A stretch of 64,000 nucleotides of DNA. Source: Anaerolinea sp. (GTDB taxonomy: Bacteria > Chloroflexota > Anaerolineae > Anaerolineales > Anaerolineaceae). The number at the start of each line of letters is the position of its first letter. Positions within the stretch are counted from its first letter, which is position 1. The notes below the pieces were generated by a model. That model worked only from the letters and a program-made list of their open reading frames with translations. It searched no databases and was not told the origin of the DNA. Shown in pieces: positions 7,729-64,000 of this stretch. Both the position numbers and the translations under genes were made by a program. The stretch is taken from NCBI GenBank assembly GCA_029975055.1, contig JARKPU010000055.1, positions 17,251-81,250 of the forward strand. Direction: 5' to 3'.

Positions 7729-8688
7729 TTATGGCCTGGCCTCGAGGAGCAGCTCCACGCGGGCGATGGCCCCGCCCAGGCTGTACACGCTCAGCTCGAA
7801 CGGCACCCTGCTCCCGCCTGCGGGCGGCGCGGAATTTTCCCAGCGGCGCACCCCCAGCGGGGTTCCATCGGCCGCATAGGCCACCGCCGCCACCCAAACG
7901 ACGCCCGCCCCGCCTGCATCCAGCGCCACGCTGCCCCGCGCGTGCGCCGAAAGCCCGTCTGAAGCGATCGTCACGCTCTGGCCCTCCAGCCGGGCCTGGA
8001 CATAGCGCGTATCGCCCTCGGGGAGCGGCAGCCCGGTGACCAGTTCGGCCCCGGCCTCGAACTCTTCCGGGGCAGGCGCATCCACATAGGCCACCAGCGG
8101 CAGGCTGGCCCCCGGCTCGAGCAGATTGAGCGGCGCGAAGGCCGCCAGCTCGAGGATTTCGCTGGAGGGTTTCACCAGCAGGCGCACCTTTGCGCTCAAG
8201 TTCTCCACGGCCTGGCCGGTGGAATTGGTCGCCAGCGCCAGGCAGGTCAGGCTGCCATCCAGCGCGCGGTAGCAGGCAGGCTGCGCCAGCGTCACCGGCA
8301 GGGGCGTGGGGGTCGGGTTTTGAACGGTGGGCGTGGGGCGGCTGCCCGAAGGGACGATCAACACCGTGCCCACCCGCATCGCGCGCGGGTTGACGGTGGG
8401 GTTGGCGGTCAGCAGCACGTCGAGGGTCACGCCGTAGCGGTACGCGATGCCGAACATATCCTCGCCATCCTGCACCACATGCCTGAGCGGCGTGGGGGTG
8501 AGCGATGGCAGCGGGGAGGGCGTAGAGCGGCTCAGGCTGGGGGTCACCCCGGCCGGGGGCAGAGGGGTGTAGGGGGTGAGCGCCCCGGCGCGCGGCGTTG
8601 CGCTGGGGGTGGCGGCAGGGGCGGCGGCAGGCGGCGCAGCGCAGCCGGCCAGGACGATCGCCGCGAGAAAGGCAAGCAGTTTACGCAT
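7729..8688 (-). CDS. LysM-domain lipoprotein with Thr/Pro-rich linkers
   Basis: Lipobox IVLAGC, LysM HVVQDGEDMFGIAYRYGVTLDVLLTANP...LIVP; start moved to MRKLLAF, which has TATAAT 6 nt upstream. Confidence 0.8.
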   Translation of the reverse strand: MRKLLAFLAAIVLAGCAAPPAAAPAATPSATPRAGALTPYTPLPPAGVTPSLSRSTPSPLPSLTPTPLRHVVQDGEDMFGIAYRYGVTLDVLLTANPTVNPRAMRVGTVLIVPSGSRPTPTVQNPTPTPLPVTLAQPACYRALDGSLTCLALATNSTGQAVENLSAKVRLLVKPSSEILELAAFAPLNLLEPGASLPLVAYVDAPAPEEFEAGAELVTGLPLPEGDTRYVQARLEGQSVTIASDGLSAHARGSVALDAGGAGVVWVAAVAYAADGTPLGVRRWENSAPPAGGSRVPFELSVYSLGGAIARVELLLEARP

Positions 8689-8694
8689 GCGGCA

Positions 8695-8812
8695 ATTATA
8701 CCCGCCCGGGCGCAGCGCATTCCCTTCCCTGCCCGTTAGCCGTTTCTCAGCCTTCCTTCTCGAAGCTGGGCAATTCACCCGGCTTGCCCGCTGGAAAAGC
8801 CTATGCTAAACT
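8695..8812. promoter_or_regulatory. Back-to-back leaderless-type promoters
   Basis: Minus strand: TATAAT (8695-8700) 6 nt from ATG 8688. Plus strand: TTGCCC (8784-8789)-17 nt-TAAACT (8807-8812, TGn-extended) 6 nt from ATG 8819. Confidence 0.6.
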
Positions 8813-8818
8813 CAAAGC

Positions 8819-10630
8819 ATGACCCCCGAAGAGGCCATGTACCAGGAGGCCTTGGCGGCTGTCCGCAGCGGCGAGCGCGCCCGCGCCCGCGACCTGTTCA
8901 CGCGGCTGCTCAAGCTCAACCAGGCCAACGCCGATTACTGGCTGTGGATGAGCGCGGTGGTCGATACCCCCAAAGAACGCTCGTACTGCCTCAACGAAGT
9001 CTTGCGCCGCGACCCCGAAAACCAGGCCGCCCGGCGCGGGCTGCAACTCTTGGGGCAGGCCCAGCCAGATGAAAGCCGCGTCATCCCCCTGCGCCTGATG
9101 AAGCGCAACTGGCAGGCCGCGCCGCTGCCCGGCGCGCAAGAGCGCACCCCCCTGCCGCTGGGCGGCTGGCGGCAGTGGGCCATGATCCTCGGCGCATTAG
9201 TGTTGATCGCCGCGGTGACGGTGGTGGTGGTGCTCGGCTCGCGCCGCGCCACGCAGAAAGCCATCATCCTGCCCACCGACTTTCCCAACCCGCCAACCTT
9301 CACCCCGCTGCCCTCTACCACCCCGCTGCGCCGCAGCGAAACGCCCACCTTCGCCGGTCCCACCCCGCTGTGGATGCAGCTCAAGGCCACCTACACCCCC
9401 ACCCCGCTGTACGTGGATACCCCTCACCCGGTCAGCGAGGCTTACCGCATCGGCATGCGCGCCTACCAGCGCGGCGACTGGGCCGGGCTGGAAACCTACA
9501 TGCTGCAGGTGGTCACGGTGCAGCCCGAGGCCGTGGATGCGCTCTACTACGCGGGCGAGGCAAAACGCTTTGAGGGGAAATTTGACCAGGCAATCGCCTA
9601 CTACACCCGCGCGATCAACACCAACCCCTCTTTCGGCCCGGCCTACCTCGGCCGCGCCCGCGCCGTGTTGAGCGCCGAGCCCAAGGCCGATTCTCCGGCC
9701 AGGGCGCGCGCCGACCTCGAAGCGGCAATCCAGTATGACCCCAACCTCGGCGAGGCTTACCAGGAGCTGGCGAACCTGGACATAGCGGCCGGCGATTACA
9801 CCGCCGCGCTCGACAGGCTGGCCCAGGCCGAGGCGCTGCTGCCCGGCTCGCCGCTCACCCGCATCCTGCGCGGCCGGGCCTACCTGGGCCTGGGTGATGC
9901 CCCCAAGGCGCTCGAAGAAGCCAGGGCCGCCTCCGAGCTGGATTTCACCTCCCTCCCCGCTTACCGCTTCCTGGCCGAAGCGCTGCAGGCAAACAAACGT
10001 GATGCCGACTCGCTCACCCCGCTCAAAACCTACCTGCGCTACGTCGCCGATGACGCCTTCGCCTATGTGATGGCGGCGCGCGCCTACGAAGCCGTCAAGG
10101 AGCCGGAGGCCGCGCTCGAGTCGCTCTCTGCCGCCCTCAAGCTGGACCGCCGCTCGGTGGATGCGCTTTTGCAGCGCGCCCGCCTGTATATGGACTTGAA
10201 GAATTACTCTTCCGCCGTGGACGATTACAAGGCGGCCGCCGAGCTGGATAAAGAATCCTACGCCGCCAGCCTGGGCCTGGGCGTGGCGCTCTTCAAAGCC
10301 CAATATCCCGGCGACGCCTACGTGCAGTTCGAGCGCACCCTCGGCCTGGCCGAAGGTGACAGCCAGACGGCCGAGCTGTACTACTGGGAAGCTCAGTCGC
10401 TCGAAGCGCTCGATAAGCCCTCGGTGGCCTACACCCTCTGGCAAAAGCTGCTCGCGCTGCCCGCCGAAGCGCTCCAGCCGGAATGGGCCGTCCTGGCAAG
10501 GCAGCGCATCGCCGCCCTGGCCACCCGCACGCCCACCCCGGCGCAGAGCGCCACCCTGGCCCCCACCCGCACCCCCGCGCCCACCGCCACCCGCACACGG
10601 GTGCCCCCCAGCCCATCGCCCACCCGTTGA
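8819..10630 (+). CDS. Single-pass membrane TPR protein
   Basis: N-terminal TPR-like domain, TM helix WAMILGALVLIAAVTVVVVLG, Thr/Pro linker, many TPRs (ALYYAGEA..., AYLGRARA...) and a Thr/Pro tail. Confidence 0.8.
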   Translation: MTPEEAMYQEALAAVRSGERARARDLFTRLLKLNQANADYWLWMSAVVDTPKERSYCLNEVLRRDPENQAARRGLQLLGQAQPDESRVIPLRLMKRNWQAAPLPGAQERTPLPLGGWRQWAMILGALVLIAAVTVVVVLGSRRATQKAIILPTDFPNPPTFTPLPSTTPLRRSETPTFAGPTPLWMQLKATYTPTPLYVDTPHPVSEAYRIGMRAYQRGDWAGLETYMLQVVTVQPEAVDALYYAGEAKRFEGKFDQAIAYYTRAINTNPSFGPAYLGRARAVLSAEPKADSPARARADLEAAIQYDPNLGEAYQELANLDIAAGDYTAALDRLAQAEALLPGSPLTRILRGRAYLGLGDAPKALEEARAASELDFTSLPAYRFLAEALQANKRDADSLTPLKTYLRYVADDAFAYVMAARAYEAVKEPEAALESLSAALKLDRRSVDALLQRARLYMDLKNYSSAVDDYKAAAELDKESYAASLGLGVALFKAQYPGDAYVQFERTLGLAEGDSQTAELYYWEAQSLEALDKPSVAYTLWQKLLALPAEALQPEWAVLARQRIAALATRTPTPAQSATLAPTRTPAPTATRTRVPPSPSPTR

Positions 10631-10642
10631 ACCTGCAACCTC

Positions 10643-13495
10643 GTGCGCACGATTGATCTCTTCACATTGGTTCACCGGCGCAAGCTGCGCCGCACCTACC
10701 GGCAGAGCAAAGCGCGCCGCCGCGCCGGGCGCCTGGGGCTTGGCCTGCTGGCGGTGCTCTTCCTGGCCGCTGCCGCCGGGCTGGGGGCCGTTTCCTACTG
10801 GTACAGTTCGCTCACCGGCGGCCTGCCCACCCTGGCCGATCTGCCCGCTTTCTTCGACCCCGGCGAAGGGTTGTTCTTCCAGCCCACGCGCCTGTATGAC
10901 CGCACCGGTCAGCACCTGCTGCTGACGCTCGAAAACCCGGGCATTGTGCGCCGCTACATGCATGTTGATCCCACCGAGGCGGATCACTTCTCGCCCGAGC
11001 TGCTGCGCGCCGCCGTGGCCCTGCTCGACCCGACCTTCTGGAGCAACCCAGGCTTCCATTCGGGCCGCCTGCTCGACCCCCAGCCCGCCACCCTGGCCGA
11101 ACGCCTGGCCTACGACCTCTTCCTGAGCCAGGAACCCGCCGGGCTGCGCCGGGCGCTGCGCATGCGCCTGCTGGCCGCCCAGCTGGTCAGCCAGTACGGG
11201 CGCTCCAAAGTGCTGGAGTGGTACCTGAATTCGGCCTCTTTTGGGCACCTCACCTACGGCGCCGAGGCCGCCGCGCGTCTCTACCTGGATAAATCGGCCT
11301 CCGAGCTCACGCTGGCCGATGCGGCCCTGCTCATCCCGCTCACCTCCGCGCCCGCGCTCAACCCGCTCGATTCGCCAAACGCCGCCGTCGAACGACAGCA
11401 GGCCGCGCTGGAACAACTCCTTGCAGAAAAGGCAATCTCGCCGGATGAGTATCAACGCGCTTCCGCTTCAGAAGTGCGCCTGCGCAAAGAGACCCCCGCG
11501 GGCAAATCATCGGCCGCGGCTTTCACCTCGCTCGCGCTTGACCAGCTCGCGCGCTGCTTTGGCCGCCAGCGCTTAGAGCGCGGCGGGCTGCGCATCATCA
11601 CCAGCCTCGATTACGACCTGCAGTTAGAGATGACCTGCCTGGTACGCACCCAGCTACGCCGCCTGGAAGGTCTGAGCGGGCAGGAAAGCCTGCCCGACGG
11701 CTCGGAGTGCCAATCGGCGCGCCTGCTGCCCACCCTGCCGCCCGGCGATTCGCTTCCCCCCGGCCTGGCCGCCGCCGGAACCGTTCTCGACCCTTCCACC
11801 GGCCAGGTGCTGGCCCTGCTCGGAGATACCACCCTCGAAAGCGAACCCGCCTTCGCCGCCGCTCACTCGCCCGGCTCGCTGCTCACGCCCATCGCCGCAG
11901 CGGCGGCCTTTGCGCGCAGTTACGGCCCCGCCAGCCTGGTGTGGGATATCCCCTCCGGCCTGGCGCAGGCGGCCAACCCCGATGGCGTCTACCACGGGCC
12001 GCTGCGCCTGCGCGCCGCCCTCGCCAACGATTACCTCTCGCCGCTCGCGCAAATGGTGGATCAGATCGGCCCGGCCAGCGCCTGGCGGCTCGCGGCCGCC
12101 CTGGGGCTGCCCGCGCTGGCCGAGGAGCAGTCGGCGGACGTGCTTTTCAGCGGCGCAAAATCCACCCCGGTGGAACTGGCCCAGGCCTATTCGGCCTTCG
12201 CCAACCTCGGCACGCTCAACGGGCAGCGCCTGCCCGGGCTGGCGGCCATTCAACCGGTGACCGTGCTTTACGTGGAAGACGCGCAGCAGCGCATCCTGTT
12301 AGACGCAACCACGCCCGAGGCGCAGCCGGTGCTCAGCCCGCCGCTGGCCTACCTGGTACATCACGTCCTCAGCGACGAGCAGTCGCGCTGGCCCACCCTG
12401 GGCTACCCCAATCCGCTCGAAGTCGGCCGCCCGGCCGGGGCCAAGGTGGGGCGCGTGGAGGGCGGGCAAGAAGCCTGGGCGGCGGGGTATATCCGCCGGC
12501 GCGTGGCCGTGCTGTGGCTCGGCAGCCGGCAGGCCCGGGTGGACCCGCGCTTTGCCGCCGGAATCTGGCATGCGCTCATCCAGTTCACCGCGCGCGACCT
12601 GCCCGCTGAAGATTGGCCGCCCCCCCAGGGCGTCTCTACCGTCAACGTGTGCGACCCATCCGGCCAGCTGCCCACCGCGGCCTGCCCGGCGGTGGTGGCC
12701 GAGCTGTTCCTGGCGGGCAACGAGCCGGTCTCTTACGACTCGCTCTACCAGACCTACCAGGTCAACCGCGAGACGGGCCGCCTGGCGACGGTCTTCACCC
12801 CCGCCGGGCTGGTGGACGAGCGCGTGTACATGCAAGTGCCCCCCGAGGCGCGTGCATGGGCCGCCGCGGCGGGCATTCAAACCCCGCCGGACGTGTACGA
12901 TGCCATCCAGCCGCCCGCGCCATCCGAAAATGTGCAGATCAGCAGCCCGGCGCCGTTCGCCTACGTGCGCGGCAAGGTGGCGCTGCGCGGCACGGCGCGC
13001 GGAGCGGGCTTCAGCTCCTACCGCCTGCAGGCCGGGGCCGGGCTCAACCCGCAGAGCTGGCTGCAGATCGCCCCCGATAGCTCCACCCCAGCCAGCGACC
13101 AGCTGCTGGCCGAATGGGATACGCAGGGCCTGGACGGACTCTATGCCCTGCGCCTGCTGGTGGTGCGCGCCGACCAGACGGTGGAAAACGCCACCATCCA
13201 GGTGACGGTGGATAACACCCCGCCCGTCGCGCGGGTGATCTACCCGCTGCCGGGCCAGGCCTTCAACCTCCCCAGAGACCGCCAGGTCACCTTCCAGGCC
13301 GAGGCCTCCGACGCGGTGGGCATCCAGAAGGTGGAGTGGCTGGTGGATGGCAAACCGGCCGGGCAGAACCTGGTGGCCCCGTGGAGCTACACCTGGCAGG
13401 CCTCCCCCGGCGAGCACACCCTGGCGGTGCGCGTCACCGACCTGGCCGGCAACCTCACCGAATCGGCGCAGGTAAAATTCCAGGTGAACCGCTGA
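10643..13495 (+). CDS. Class A penicillin-binding protein homologue with degenerate catalytic motifs and C-terminal Ig-like domains
   Basis: TM anchor, TRLYDRTG, VLEWYLN...GAEAAARLYLDK, IITSLDYDLQ and a transpeptidase-like region; the catalytic motifs are altered (see findings). GTG start. Confidence 0.8.
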   Translation: MRTIDLFTLVHRRKLRRTYRQSKARRRAGRLGLGLLAVLFLAAAAGLGAVSYWYSSLTGGLPTLADLPAFFDPGEGLFFQPTRLYDRTGQHLLLTLENPGIVRRYMHVDPTEADHFSPELLRAAVALLDPTFWSNPGFHSGRLLDPQPATLAERLAYDLFLSQEPAGLRRALRMRLLAAQLVSQYGRSKVLEWYLNSASFGHLTYGAEAAARLYLDKSASELTLADAALLIPLTSAPALNPLDSPNAAVERQQAALEQLLAEKAISPDEYQRASASEVRLRKETPAGKSSAAAFTSLALDQLARCFGRQRLERGGLRIITSLDYDLQLEMTCLVRTQLRRLEGLSGQESLPDGSECQSARLLPTLPPGDSLPPGLAAAGTVLDPSTGQVLALLGDTTLESEPAFAAAHSPGSLLTPIAAAAAFARSYGPASLVWDIPSGLAQAANPDGVYHGPLRLRAALANDYLSPLAQMVDQIGPASAWRLAAALGLPALAEEQSADVLFSGAKSTPVELAQAYSAFANLGTLNGQRLPGLAAIQPVTVLYVEDAQQRILLDATTPEAQPVLSPPLAYLVHHVLSDEQSRWPTLGYPNPLEVGRPAGAKVGRVEGGQEAWAAGYIRRRVAVLWLGSRQARVDPRFAAGIWHALIQFTARDLPAEDWPPPQGVSTVNVCDPSGQLPTAACPAVVAELFLAGNEPVSYDSLYQTYQVNRETGRLATVFTPAGLVDERVYMQVPPEARAWAAAAGIQTPPDVYDAIQPPAPSENVQISSPAPFAYVRGKVALRGTARGAGFSSYRLQAGAGLNPQSWLQIAPDSSTPASDQLLAEWDTQGLDGLYALRLLVVRADQTVENATIQVTVDNTPPVARVIYPLPGQAFNLPRDRQVTFQAEASDAVGIQKVEWLVDGKPAGQNLVAPWSYTWQASPGEHTLAVRVTDLAGNLTESAQVKFQVNR

Positions 13496-13498
13496 GGA

Positions 13499-14767
13499 TT
13501 AGATTCCTTCCAGCATCAGCAGCGCGTCTTCCCAATGCGCAGGCACCGAGAACCACTCGCTCGTCCAGCGCGCGAAGGTGGCGCCCGTGGCATTGCCGGT
13601 GAGGTATTCGCCCCCCGCCTGGTGCTCGCCGGTGGCGGGGTTGATCCAGGTGGCGCGCGCCTTGCGCGCGGCAATGCGGTCTACCCGCACATAGGCGTGG
13701 CACTGGCTGGAGAGGTAGAGCAGCGCCAGGCGCCGATCGGGGGTGCGCATGGCCGCGTTGAGCGTGCGCCCGCAGCTGGTGCCTTCGTTGAACAGGGTCT
13801 GGTCGGGGATCATTTCCCACCAGGGGAAATGCCCGATGATCTGGCGCAGCATGCCCATGTGGAATGCGCCCGGCGAATCGAGCGCGCCCTGCCAGCCGGG
13901 TTCCATGCGCCACATCTGGTTTTGTCCATACGTGGGGAAGCCCCCGGCCATCACGGCCCACCAGGCCTGCCGGCGCACCACCAGCGGGGTGATCGGCCCG
14001 AGCGGGTATTCCGGGCCGTCTTCATAGGCGCCCTCGGCGTGCACAACCGGCTTGGGCGGGTCGAGCGCCCGGTCGGCCGAGACTGCCTGGTACACCGCCG
14101 GCCAGGCCGACCACGTCTGGATCATATTGAAGTCCAGCCAATCTTCATTGTGGAAGTAGTAGGAAGACGAGAAGAACCCGCACGGGTGATAGGAGATCAG
14201 GTGGCTGCCCCCATCTCCGGCGCGCAGCCCGCGGGCAATGGCCCGCCAGGTATCGGCGCAGTCCGCCGGTTCGCGGTCGCCCCCGTTGACCCAGATGAGG
14301 TTCGGCGCGTCTTTGAAGCGCCTTCCCAGCCATTCGCCGTAGGCGTAGCCGTTTTGCGGGTCGAACACGCGGCTGTCGTTCACATGGAAGCCCCAGGTGG
14401 GCAGCACTGCCAGTACAAGCCCCAGTTCGGCGGCGCGGCGCAGGAGCGTCTCCACGTAATTAAAAAAGGCCGGGTTCGGTTCGGCGGGGGTCTGCTTCCA
14501 GGGCGGTTCGCCGTGATAGTTCGCCCTGGGGGGCGTTCCGGCCAGGTTGGGCGGGATGGGGTCGCCCCAGGCCAGCACGCACTGGATGACGCTGAAGCCC
14601 TTGGCCGCCCGGTTGACCAGGTGACGGTCGGCCGCCTCGGGGCTGTAGCTGACGAAGAAGGGCCAGGCGGTATCGCCCAGCCAGAAGAAAGGCCTGCCGT
14701 TCGCATCAACGAAATAGCGCCGGTTCGGGCTCACGCGAATGGGGCCGGGGAAGGTGGTTGCTGGCAT
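13499..14767 (-). CDS. DUF4038 / GH140 apiosidase-like glycoside hydrolase with C-terminal putative collagen-binding-like domain
   Basis: YFVDANGRPFFWLGDTAW, RAAKGFSVIQ, IWVNGGD, ISYHP, WLDFNMIQTW, KPVVHAEGAYE; SD GAGG before MPATTF; no signal peptide seen. Confidence 0.75.
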   Translation of the reverse strand: MPATTFPGPIRVSPNRRYFVDANGRPFFWLGDTAWPFFVSYSPEAADRHLVNRAAKGFSVIQCVLAWGDPIPPNLAGTPPRANYHGEPPWKQTPAEPNPAFFNYVETLLRRAAELGLVLAVLPTWGFHVNDSRVFDPQNGYAYGEWLGRRFKDAPNLIWVNGGDREPADCADTWRAIARGLRAGDGGSHLISYHPCGFFSSSYYFHNEDWLDFNMIQTWSAWPAVYQAVSADRALDPPKPVVHAEGAYEDGPEYPLGPITPLVVRRQAWWAVMAGGFPTYGQNQMWRMEPGWQGALDSPGAFHMGMLRQIIGHFPWWEMIPDQTLFNEGTSCGRTLNAAMRTPDRRLALLYLSSQCHAYVRVDRIAARKARATWINPATGEHQAGGEYLTGNATGATFARWTSEWFSVPAHWEDALLMLEGI

Positions 14768-15029
14768 ATGAACCTCGCTGAAACGGATTGAACCTTGCGA
14801 AGGAATTCGCTTCCAGGGATCAGTCGAAATGCACACAGCCTTGCGCGGGATGGTCGTCAACCGCATGGTCAGGCTCGTTAATATTATCCATCAAAACCGC
14901 GCAATTTCCATCGAGGATTCTCAACGAGCCGGCACCTTCGCCGTGGATTAGAATACCGATAAAACCAACCGTTTTAGGCGAATTTTTTGGTATAATATCA
15001 TAAATATCTTCTGAATTGAACGGTGCCCC

Positions 15030-17033: not shown

Positions 17034-18253
17034 GCCAGGCACTCCACCAGCATGGCCTCGCCCTGACCCACGCCCACGCACAGCGTCGCCAGGCCGTAAT
17101 AAGGGCGGGGCGCGCCGGCGGCGCGGCGGCGCATTTCGTGCAGCAGGGTGGTGAGGATGCGCGCCCCCGAGCACCCCAGCGGGTGGCCCAGCGCCACCGC
17201 CCCGCCGTTGACGTTGACCATCTCATGCGAAAGGCCCAGTTCGGCCATCACCGCCAGCACCTGCACGGCAAAGGCTTCGTTGATCTCCACCAGCCCCACC
17301 TGGTTCAGCTCCAGGCCGGCGCGCGCCAGGGCTTTGCGGGTGGCCGGAACCGGCCCAAGGCCCATCACCCGCGGGGCCACGCCCGCCGCCGCCGAAGCGA
17401 CCACGCGCGCCAGCGGCTTGAAGCCCAGCGCAGCCGCGCGCGCGGCGCTCATCACCAGCAGGGCTGCCGCGCCGTCGTTCAGCCCGGAAGAGTTGCCCGC
17501 CGTGACGCTCCCGCCCTGCCGGAAGGCAGGCTTGAGGCGCGCGAGCGATTCGTAGGTGGTGTCGCGGCGCGGGCGCTCGTCGGTATCCACCACCAGCGGC
17601 TCGCCTTTCTTTTGCGGCACGGGCACGGGGGTGATTTCCTCGGCGAACCTGCCCGAATCGATCGCCTCGATCGCCCGCCGGTGGCTCTCGAGAGCGAAGC
17701 GATCCTGCGCCTCGCGCGAGATACCGGTCTGCCCGGCGATGTTTTCAGCCGTCTCGCCCATCGACTCAAGGCCGTAGAGCTGCTCCATGCGCGGGTTGGG
17801 GTAACGCCAGCCCAGGGCCGTGTCGTAGGCCGTCAGGTTGCCAAAGGGGAAGCCCGCCTCGGCCTTGGGCAGCGAATAGGGCGCGCGCGACATGCTCTCC
17901 ACGCCCCCGGCGATGAACACGTCACCCTCGCCGCTGCGGATAGCCCTGGCCGCCATGCTCACCGCAGTCAACCCCGAAGCACACAATCGGTTGAAGGTGA
18001 CCCCCGCCGTCTCCACGGGCAGCCCGGCCAGCAGCGCGGCCATGCGCGCCACGTTGCGGTTATCTTCGCCGGCCTGGTTGGCGCAGCCGAAGTACACCTC
18101 TTCCACCAGGGCCGGGTCGAGGCCGGTGCGCTGCAACAGCGCGCGGATGGCGTGTGCGGCGAGGTCGTCTGGCCGCACGCGCGCCAGCGCCCCGCCCAGC
18201 GCCCCGATGGGCGTGCGGATGGCATCGATGATGACAGGGTCTTGTGGGTGCAT
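17030..18253 (-). CDS. Thiolase (acetyl-CoA C-acyltransferase, PcaF-like)
   Basis: [46 protein letters not shown]. Confidence 0.9.
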
Positions 18254-62477: not shown

Positions 62478-64000
62478 ATGATGACAAACCAACCCGACCC
62501 GACCCCTGGCGACGCGGAGGATGAGAACACCCCCGGCCGCCGGCTGCGCAAGTTGATCGAAGCCGGCCAGCAGGCCGAAGAAGAAGCCCGGCAGCAAGAA
62601 CTCCCTGCTTCCGAGCCAGCCCCGCCCCCGTCTGCCTTCCCGCCCGCTTCAGCCGAACCCCCCACCCAGGAACCGCCTGCCCCCGCCGCCGAGGATGCTT
62701 TCATCCCGCCGCTGCCGCCCAGGCATGCCATCGACCCCGACGCGCCGACCATCCCGCCGCTGCCGCCCGAGCCGCCCCTCGGCGAAGGCGCCACGCCGCC
62801 GCGCGCCGACCCCCTGGCGAATACCCCCTTTGACGACCGCACCATCCCCGCCGGTTCCGATGCCACCCCGCCCGCCCGGCATGCCGCGCCGCCCTTCGAC
62901 TTCACCAGCGACGAGAGCCTGCTCCCCCGCCATGTCGAAGAGGTGGACCCCGACTCCACCCAGGTGACCGCCTCGGCTTACCAGCACAACGGCATCTCCG
63001 GCCAGCCGCCCGCCGATAGCACGCAGCCCACCCGCCCGGTGCAGCCGCCTGCCTACCAGGCCGAAGGCCCCGCGGCCAGGGCGCAGCGCAGGCACATCAT
63101 CGCCCAGCAGCGCGCCCAACAGCAGGTTCATCCTTACCCGGCGCAGGCCCCGGCGCGCCCTCTGCAGAAACCCGCCCGCCCGGCCCCTGCAGGGGCTTCC
63201 GGCTGGCGCACCGGCCTGGGCTGCCTGCTGCGCATGCTGCTGGTTTTCTTCATCGTGGTCATCCTCGTCGCCGGGGCGGGAGCCACCTTCCTGGTTTACC
63301 AGTATTTTTCCATCGCCCGCACCCTGCCGGATATTTCCAGCCTCGGCGAGCGCGCCTCGCAGTTCGAGACGACCCGCATCCTCGACCGCAACGGCAACGT
63401 GCTCTATGAAATCCTCGACCCCAACGCCGGGCGGCGCACTTACGTCTCGCTGGATAAAATCTCGCCCTATGTCGTCGCCGCCACCATCGCCACCGAGGAT
63501 AAAGAGTATTACAACCATCCCGGCTTCGATCCCATCGCCATCGCGCGCGCGTTTTGGTCTAACTACACCACCGGAGAAATCGTCTCCGGCGCGTCCACCA
63601 TCACCCAGCAGCTCGCGCGCATGCTCCTCCTCGGCCCCGAGGAGGCCTCGCAGCGCACCTACCAGCGCAAAGCCCGCGAGATCGTCCTGGCCGCCGAGTT
63701 GACCCGCCGCTACAGCAAGGATGAGATCCTCGAGCTGTTCCTCAACGAGAACAATTACGGCAACCTGGCTTACGGCATCGAAGCCGCCGCCGAAACCTAC
63801 TTCCACACCTCCGCCGATAAGCTCAACCTGGCCCAGGCGGCCTTCCTGGCCGGGCTGCCCCAGGCCCCGGCGGTGTATGATATCTACACCAACCGCGAAG
63901 AGACCCTGCGCCGCCACAAGCAGGTGCTGGTGCTGATGTACCAGCTCAGCAAAGAAAAGAACTGCATCGAGGTCTCCAACAACGTCCAGCCGGTCTGCGT
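62478..64000 (+). CDS. Class A penicillin-binding protein (PBP1A-like), partial, with long Pro/acidic N-terminal extension
   Basis: My translation gives about 240 low-complexity residues, a TM, then the canonical GT51 motifs ATEDKEYYNHPG, GASTITQQLAR, RKARE and KDEILELFLN; runs off the right edge. Confidence 0.9.
   Translation, partial: MMTNQPDPTPGDAEDENTPGRRLRKLIEAGQQAEEEARQQELPASEPAPPPSAFPPASAEPPTQEPPAPAAEDAFIPPLPPRHAIDPDAPTIPPLPPEPPLGEGATPPRADPLANTPFDDRTIPAGSDATPPARHAAPPFDFTSDESLLPRHVEEVDPDSTQVTASAYQHNGISGQPPADSTQPTRPVQPPAYQAEGPAARAQRRHIIAQQRAQQQVHPYPAQAPARPLQKPARPAPAGASGWRTGLGCLLRMLLVFFIVVILVAGAGATFLVYQYFSIARTLPDISSLGERASQFETTRILDRNGNVLYEILDPNAGRRTYVSLDKISPYVVAATIATEDKEYYNHPGFDPIAIARAFWSNYTTGEIVSGASTITQQLARMLLLGPEEASQRTYQRKAREIVLAAELTRRYSKDEILELFLNENNYGNLAYGIEAAAETYFHTSADKLNLAQAAFLAGLPQAPAVYDIYTNREETLRRHKQVLVLMYQLSKEKNCIEVSNNVQPVC

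Follow-up and report, generated by a model that had tools for sequence, protein, structure and literature searches.

A class A penicillin-binding protein that has lost the catalytic residues of both domains is conserved in Anaerolineales as a predicted pseudoenzyme

What keeps a class A penicillin-binding protein (aPBP) in a genome after the residues for both of its activities have gone? The question is raised by a 64,000-nucleotide stretch of an Anaerolineales bacterium (Chloroflexota; genome 4.59 Mb, 99.98% complete), namely positions 17,251 to 81,250 of contig JARKPU010000055.1 in assembly GCA_029975055.1, which is called the window here. Its gene at 10643..13495 (+), with a GTG start and a TGA stop, encodes a 950-residue protein derived from a class A PBP, termed pseudo-PBP below. 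Textbooks present aPBPs as enzymes with two activities and as targets of antibiotics; their roles beyond catalysis are difficult to tell apart from it. An earlier note had proposed that this protein is a pseudo-enzyme and no decaying pseudogene, and our analysis upholds that view: the dead motifs are common to orthologues that form one clade, the ratio of nonsynonymous to synonymous substitution rates (dN/dS) is ~0.1, and the aPBP fold is modelled with confidence. Judged from sequences and models, the pseudoenzyme status of pseudo-PBP is well supported.

To read the active-site motifs, we aligned the protein with PBP1a proteins of solved structure, with canonical paralogues and with sister proteins; all coordinates in this paragraph are on the + strand. 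In the glycosyltransferase (GT) domain, motif 1 (EDxxFxxHxG) has become LLDPTFWSNPG (11021..11053), with Leu128 in place of the catalytic Glu. Motif 2 (GxSTITQQ) reads QPATLAER (11081..11104) directly after a 13-residue deletion, which removes the GT51 flap between motifs 1 and 2, and motif 3 (RKxxE) reads RALRM (11150..11164), Lys being replaced by Ala171 and Glu by Met174. In the transpeptidase (TP) domain, SxxK is SLLT (11876..11887; Lys to Thr415), SxN is DYL (12029..12037; Ser to Asp463, Asn lost) and KTG is KVG (12443..12451; Thr to a hydrophobic residue). These six degenerate readings had been given in the earlier note, and the alignments bear out every one. The importance of the corresponding catalytic residues is established for E. 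coli PBP1A/1B (Glu94/Glu233 and Ser473/Ser510; PMC4632607), and in S. aureus MGT the segment that joins motif I to motif II forms the "flap" of the jaw subdomain, which parts the donor from the acceptor site (PMC6053601). Pseudo-PBP still possesses the SxxK serine (S412), K601 and G603 of KTG, the Asp of the motif 1 ED pair and the GT51 head-subdomain motifs VLEWYLNS, YGAEAAA and NP. Taken together, the substitutions predict a catalytically inactive protein that would neither polymerise lipid II nor cross-link peptides.

The surrounding protein is intact. As the earlier note had stated, the 950-codon open reading frame is uninterrupted, with zero internal stops. All domains lie on the + strand. 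A basic cytoplasmic N-terminus (R/K-rich at residues 11-30) and a single transmembrane (TM) helix (hydrophobic residues 31-54) occupy residues 1-58 (10643..10816), modelled by AlphaFold as a long helix from 3 to 58. They are followed by a GT51-like domain (residues 61-270; 10823..11452; Pfam, alignments and Foldseek), an interdomain linker region (271-375; 11453..11767; model and structure matches) and a TP-like domain (376-655; 11768..12607; Pfam, PDB alignments and Foldseek). The C-terminal part comprises a post-TP beta module with a conserved Cys pair, C670/C681 (656-760; 12608..12922; alignment and model), a first immunoglobulin (Ig)/fibronectin type III (FN3)-like domain (761-858; 12923..13216; AlphaFold models and Foldseek) and a second Ig-like domain of the Big_7/BiPBP_C type (859-950; 13217..13492; Pfam, model and Foldseek). 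The TM anchor and two Ig-like domains described in the earlier note are thus recovered, with the Cys-containing beta module at 656-760 as one extra element.

Profile searches reflect the same combination of kept fold and eroded motifs. Pfam Transgly (PF00912) matches residues 113-259 at 74 bits against a cut-off of 27, covering profile positions 19-177 only, and the match to Transpeptidase (PF00905; residues 380-526) is marginal, with 21.5 and 23.8 bits in two scans against a cut-off of 22.1. At residues 861-940, BiPBP_C scores 36.6 bits beneath a stronger overlapping Big_7 match. The NCBIfam family model PBP_1a_fam (TIGR02074) reaches 211.4 bits, under its cut-off of 508.75, and the PBP1C equivalog TIGR02073 reaches 142 bits, under its cut-off of 494. 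Of the features that define a class A PBP, pseudo-PBP retains the TM anchor, the GT51 fold and the transpeptidase fold (residues 376-700 by PDB alignments and Foldseek), and lacks canonical GT motifs 1, 2 and 3, the flap, SxxK, SxN, KTG and a TIGR02074 score above cut-off. Public records name such proteins "membrane carboxypeptidase" or "transglycosylase domain-containing protein".

Structure prediction, one of the checks suggested earlier, supports the retention of the fold. The AlphaFold2 model, built on a 66-sequence alignment, has a mean predicted local distance difference test score (pLDDT) of 92.2 and a predicted template modelling score of 0.79, and its closest PDB matches in Foldseek are full-length class A PBPs: S. 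aureus PBP2 (3DWK) is best, with an E-value of 2e-31 and a target TM-score of 0.68-0.74, followed by A. baumannii PBP1a (3UDF), H. influenzae PBP1A and E. coli PBP1b. The helix usually found between GT motifs 1 and 2 is missing from the model.

To place this state in an evolutionary frame, we compared 107 aligned Anaerolineales sequences, 87 of which share the degenerate motifs, as do all 7 further fragmentary order-level copies. Of the 17 families sampled in the order, 10 carry the dead form, with a full-length intact open reading frame in ~90 species-level genomes; the other 7 families carry a ~1010-residue protein of the same architecture with canonical motifs (EDKTF, GGSTITQQ, RKxRE, SSFK, SYN, KTGT). 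Wherever a genome of the genus or family is complete enough, it has a stop-free, full-length orthologue, as do many genomes elsewhere in the order; identities are 36-71%. Cultured carriers include Anaerolinea thermolimosa (65%), Longilinea arvoryzae (54%) and Leptolinea tardivitalis YMTK-2 (46%), and in metagenomes at least 120 clusters (90% identity clustering) match at 50% identity or more. The earlier note had asked whether orthologues would keep EDxxF and SxxK; within the window's clade they do not, which favours a pseudo-enzyme.

Maximum likelihood places the 87 dead sequences in a single clade (Shimodaira-Hasegawa-like approximate likelihood ratio test, SH-aLRT, 100) nested among canonical ~1010-residue aPBPs. 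One change of state is enough on this tree, and a site-heterogeneous model agrees, making a single origin of the main dead clade, the one containing the window's protein, a solid conclusion of the sequence comparison. Anaerolineales genomes carry a recurring trio of aPBP paralogues of about 1010, 835 and 1150 residues, the ~835-residue one having been lost in the window's genus. The ~1010-residue slot is filled by a dead or a canonical copy, and no sampled genome holds both together, which indicates that the dead protein is the orthologue inactivated in place and no extra copy. Synteny was also considered as an orthology test between dead and canonical copies; the two have no common neighbours within ~8 kb, and the test is uninformative.

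Purifying selection acts on the dead protein. Pairwise dN/dS is 0.06-0.23 in 11 close dead-clade pairs and 0.03-0.11 in 3 active-sister pairs. When values were pooled by domain over 13 pairs, the dead clade gave 0.115 for the GT-like and 0.111 for the TP-like domain, compared with 0.067 and 0.088 in active sisters, indicating that the dead catalytic domains are just slightly relaxed; a dN/dS check had been proposed in the earlier note. Constraint on the dead protein is strongest in the post-TP module (0.079, against 0.121 in active sisters); Ig1 stands at 0.093 (0.120) and Ig2 at 0.178 (0.106). Compared with the active enzymes, constraint on the post-TP module and on Ig1 is, if anything, stronger.

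These data bear directly on whether the gene was recently inactivated and is heading for loss through strain-specific decay. The degenerate motifs themselves, and nothing more, speak for such decay. It is refuted by the intact reading frame in ~90 species-level genomes from at least 10 families, by the shared motifs, the tree and the dN/dS of ~0.1, and by the confident model, leaving it with practically no probability. With its fold retained in the model, its catalytic residues missing in a state that orthologues conserve, and purifying selection on both dead domains, pseudo-PBP has the hallmarks of a pseudoenzyme.

Residues at both former active sites were compared across the dead clade. On the GT side, the motif 1 Glu position holds L, T, A, S, N, V or F, and Glu in all 15 sister sequences; this is a free residue mixture, as would be expected once constraint was released. 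The motif 3 Lys is gone throughout, and the motif 3 Glu is kept in 44 of 87 sequences, with Met in the window's subclade. Such patchy survival suggests a stepwise erosion of the GT site. On the TP side, the substituted residues are conserved in their turn. The SxxK Lys is absent from all 87 sequences, its position being taken by Thr or Ser in 75, and the former nucleophile position 412 is Ser or Thr in 83 (54 S, 29 T), with a few Ala, Asn or Phe. The SxN Ser position is Asp463 in 84 of 87 members, the Asn having given way to Leu, Val or others; Lys601 and Gly603 of KxG persist in 86 and 80 of 87, flanking varied hydrophobic residues in place of Thr, and Trp434 is found in 99% of the clade.

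Conservation of this kind could mean that the protein is still an enzyme, having lost GT activity alone, with Ser/Thr412, Asp463 and Lys601 (or other residues) forming a new catalytic arrangement, for instance a hydrolase- or carboxypeptidase-like one acting on stem peptides. The conservation of positions 412, 463, 601 and 603 and the TP-like dN/dS of 0.11 fit this idea, and reviews caution that the catalytic residues of pseudoenzymes can migrate (PMC10211241). Against it, the nucleophile is a mixture of Ser and Thr with occasional Ala, Asn and Phe, the general-base Lys is missing from every member, and the KTG Thr has been replaced by varied hydrophobics; Ser and KxG have also gone in deeper dead lineages (f45 and f64, described below). 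We consider a new catalytic function improbable.

The same residues, together with those of the GT cleft, also bear on a role as an antibiotic decoy or sensor; a decoy had been among the suggestions of the earlier note, and the protein would in that case soak up beta-lactams or moenomycin-type glycolipids and shield the active PBPs. A PBP fold with a retained Ser is compatible with this, and BlaR/MecR-type sensors are a precedent for PBP folds outside synthesis. However, acylation needs the SxxK Lys and the SxN Ser, and all dead-clade members lack the two of them. Moenomycin occupies the GT51 donor site, and a second pocket is lined by conserved residues of motifs I, II and III (PMC6053601); in pseudo-PBP, the motif I-III residues of the moenomycin pocket have been lost along with the flap. 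A Pfam scan of pseudo-PBP returned no cytoplasmic signalling domain. An antibiotic decoy is very unlikely because the residues for beta-lactam acylation and those of the moenomycin pocket are precisely the ones that disappeared.

Beyond the order, an even, class-wide sample of 150 genomes contained a canonical homologue in most other orders, and dead-looking homologues in two families, f45 (L160-L162; genomes G153, G184 and G112) and f64 (L151, L155 and L156; G087, G168 and G130). In f45, "ED" and the flap are kept, and motifs 2 and 3 and all TP motifs are lost, the Ser included; the f64 member in G087 keeps "AED" and the canonical insert ahead of SxxK. All dead sequences, those of f45, f64 and the main clade, cluster together (SH-aLRT 92 and 97), on long branches and with discordant indels, and in an approximately unbiased test the species-like alternative, which implies independent deaths, received p = 0.057. 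Across the class, the sequences are compatible with anything from one up to about three inactivations.

Two further observations concern homologues of pseudo-PBP or of its parts. In three genomes of family f15 (G038:C23:16531-19017, G117:C2:75026-77536 and G157:C1:440790-443363), the match to pseudo-PBP crosses one stop codon in frame (TAA or TAG). The G038 reading frame ends at 854 residues, right before the last Ig-like domain, and a fourth f15 genome, G188, has no such stop. These stops may reflect domain loss, a split gene or read-through. Separately, many relatives encode small proteins of ~210-280 residues that resemble Ig-like domain 1 (residues 755-870) at 30-40% identity, for example at G001:C7:71044-71358 and G027:C7:7097-7429; none was found in the window's own genome.

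What, then, might the inactive protein do? We regard it as probable that pseudo-PBP is a non-catalytic, aPBP-derived pseudoenzyme acting as a membrane-anchored subunit of wall synthesis, in which it would be a scaffold, a spacer or an allosteric regulator. Scaffolding or regulation would fit because the architecture has been retained and because the gene has a conserved neighbour encoding a TPR protein. This neighbour (8819..10630, +) encodes a membrane-anchored protein of 603 residues with one TM segment and many TPR repeats, and its stop lies 12 nt ahead of the pseudo-PBP start. No terminator-like site was detected in the gap, where a promoter and terminator scan gave nothing above shuffle expectation. 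In the window's family the TPR gene invariably stands directly ahead of the dead aPBP, an arrangement seen at 15 family-level loci with 35-62% identity. Further upstream, a divergently transcribed gene for a LysM-domain protein (7729..8778, -) is syntenic in several family members. On the other side, a convergent apiosidase-like glycoside hydrolase gene (13499-14866, -; PF13204, 255 bits) ends 3 nt past the pseudo-PBP stop and is syntenic in the closest relative only.

The C-terminal modules and the adjoining genes could also point to a non-catalytic "reader" of peptidoglycan or lipid II, which would bind nascent glycan strands or stem peptides by what is left of its two clefts and by its C-terminal beta modules, and so mark sites of synthesis or tether the membrane to the wall, with no direct regulation of enzymes. 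Both cleft folds are retained with conserved pocket residues, LysM and TPR protein genes adjoin, and the protein ends in tandem Ig/FN3-like modules such as occur in adhesins and carbohydrate-active enzymes; in the C-terminal part, the post-TP module and Ig1 are, if anything, more constrained than in active sisters. Modelled alone, the C-terminal 299 residues (pLDDT 94.3) fold into the small Cys-containing beta module and then two Ig/FN3-like sandwiches. The leading matches come from C. thermocellum CbhA, with its tandem Fn3-like modules, and from further modules of adhesin or spacer type. The Foldseek search returned generic tandem Ig/FN3-like modules that indicate no specific function or ligand, and modules of this type are generic spacers, which tells against a dedicated binding role; so does the loss of the flap and of the conserved motif I-III residues lining the pockets for the GT51 substrate and for moenomycin. 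On balance, a pure reader seems rather unlikely.

Several observations weigh against an inactive scaffold or regulator as well. About half of the dead clade, the window's member not included, retains the motif 3 Glu, and two rare members keep ED in motif 1, L011 (G015) with "LEDPDYW" and L118 (G032) with "IEDPGFW"; both have still lost motif 2, the flap, the motif 3 Lys, SxxK and SxN, and L011 has lost KTG too. The SxxK Ser/Thr, the KTG Lys and the conserved Asp persist in the TP pocket, leaving room for a reshaped catalytic site. Finally, no operon partner common to the whole dead clade was found: the order LysM, TPR, pseudo-PBP is confined to the family, and in deeper members NAD kinase-RecN or other genes take the upstream position.

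The remaining wall-synthesis genes of the genome set the context in which such a subunit would operate. The only other GT51 gene, and the sole one with intact motifs, begins within the window and runs off its end (62478..64000, +). It encodes a canonical class A PBP of 1163 residues in the genome, and the canonical GT motifs that the earlier note ascribed to it, ATEDKEYYNHPG, GASTITQQ and RKARE, are indeed present, followed by SSIK, SYN and KTG. Its TM helix is preceded by a cytoplasmic, Pro/Ala/Gln-rich N-terminal extension of ~250 residues, and its C-terminal tail is rich in Pro and Thr. The inventory further includes three class B PBPs (bPBPs) with intact SxxK, SxN (or SxD) and KTG, three SEDS genes, and six YkuD-type L,D-transpeptidase genes (contigs C70, C75, C24 and C4 of the genome, G000). 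In this genome, which has two PBP pseudoenzymes, 3-3 cross-linking may be important.

One SEDS gene (RodA/FtsW-type; G000:C24:340774-343356, -) is fused to a class B PBP-like module that is itself dead, its SxxK reading AAIA and its SxN and KTG being lost. The SEDS-associated bPBP is dead in all 15 sampled Anaerolineales relatives, including those with a canonical ~1010-residue aPBP, which rules out a coupled death of the two proteins. It follows from the same distribution that the class B pseudoenzyme is the older one and that the class A pseudoenzyme arose in a second, later event.

The scaffold or regulator role that we favour builds on a history that the comparison shows. An ancestral, bifunctional Anaerolineales aPBP of ~1010 residues lost the GT and TP catalytic residues and the GT51 flap, and the resulting protein retained its anchor in the membrane, the folds of both domains and the beta modules at its C-terminus. 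Purifying selection has maintained the dead protein in a large clade, where it replaced the active orthologue. There it may serve as an extracytoplasmic subunit for the remaining synthases (one aPBP, three bPBPs and three SEDS proteins). Binding would fall to its C-terminal modules and to its TP pocket, which is remodelled yet conserved ([ST]xx[TS], D-Y-L, K-hydrophobic-G). In the window's Anaerolineaceae-like family, it would work with the membrane TPR protein, with which it is putatively co-transcribed.

A more far-reaching version, which we hold to be unlikely, is that the wall machinery of Anaerolineae has been rebuilt around two PBP-derived non-catalytic subunits, the dead aPBP being an obligatory allosteric or adaptor subunit. 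Here, a class B PBP would have died first and become fused to SEDS, and the ~1010-residue class A PBP would have died later, in both domains. The dead aPBP would serve either the polymerase formed by SEDS and its dead bPBP or the single remaining aPBP, with the TPR protein assisting, and cross-linking would be left to the remaining bPBPs and the L,D-transpeptidases. If this were true, pseudo-PBP would be the first natural regulator of peptidoglycan synthesis with an aPBP fold.

Whichever role applies, a natural double active-site knockout, long kept across many genera, speaks for a function of the aPBP scaffold itself on which selection can act. Full-text literature searches found no published description of a naturally doubly inactive class A PBP. 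For annotation, PBP counts in Anaerolineae overstate the synthase repertoire, and this genome has one intact GT51 enzyme. Together with the fusion of SEDS to a dead bPBP, pseudo-PBP suggests that the filamentous Anaerolineales organise their wall synthesis in an unusual way, and the cultured carriers make the protein experimentally accessible.

Compared with known systems, pseudo-PBP shares the TM anchor, GT51 domain, linker, transpeptidase domain and C-terminal beta modules of canonical aPBPs such as S. aureus PBP2 (3DWK), A. baumannii PBP1a (3UDF) and E. coli PBP1b. The nearest proteins of all are the ~1010-residue aPBPs of other Anaerolineales families (L023-L030), with 35-40% identity and the GT head-subdomain motifs in common. 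In contrast to canonical aPBPs, it lacks both GT Glu residues, motif 2, the flap, the SxxK Lys, the Ser and Asn of SxN and the KTG Thr. E. coli PBP1C is likewise an aPBP with an additional C-terminal Ig-like domain; PBP1C retains its catalytic motifs, and pseudo-PBP scores far under the cut-off of its model, TIGR02073. Functionally, the dLytM factors EnvC, NlpD and relatives are among the closest parallels, being wall-enzyme homologues without catalytic residues that are kept as regulators of other wall enzymes, as activators of amidases (PMC8416486 and PMC10268282); they have another fold, act on the hydrolase side and have known partner enzymes. Inactive B. subtilis PBP 2B still supports division, a structural role independent of catalysis (PMC5656894), and both it and the SEDS-fused dead bPBP resemble pseudo-PBP in retaining a PBP module whose role is structural or activating. 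Those two modules belong to class B and their SEDS partner is known, whereas pseudo-PBP is a standalone class A protein in which both activities have been lost.

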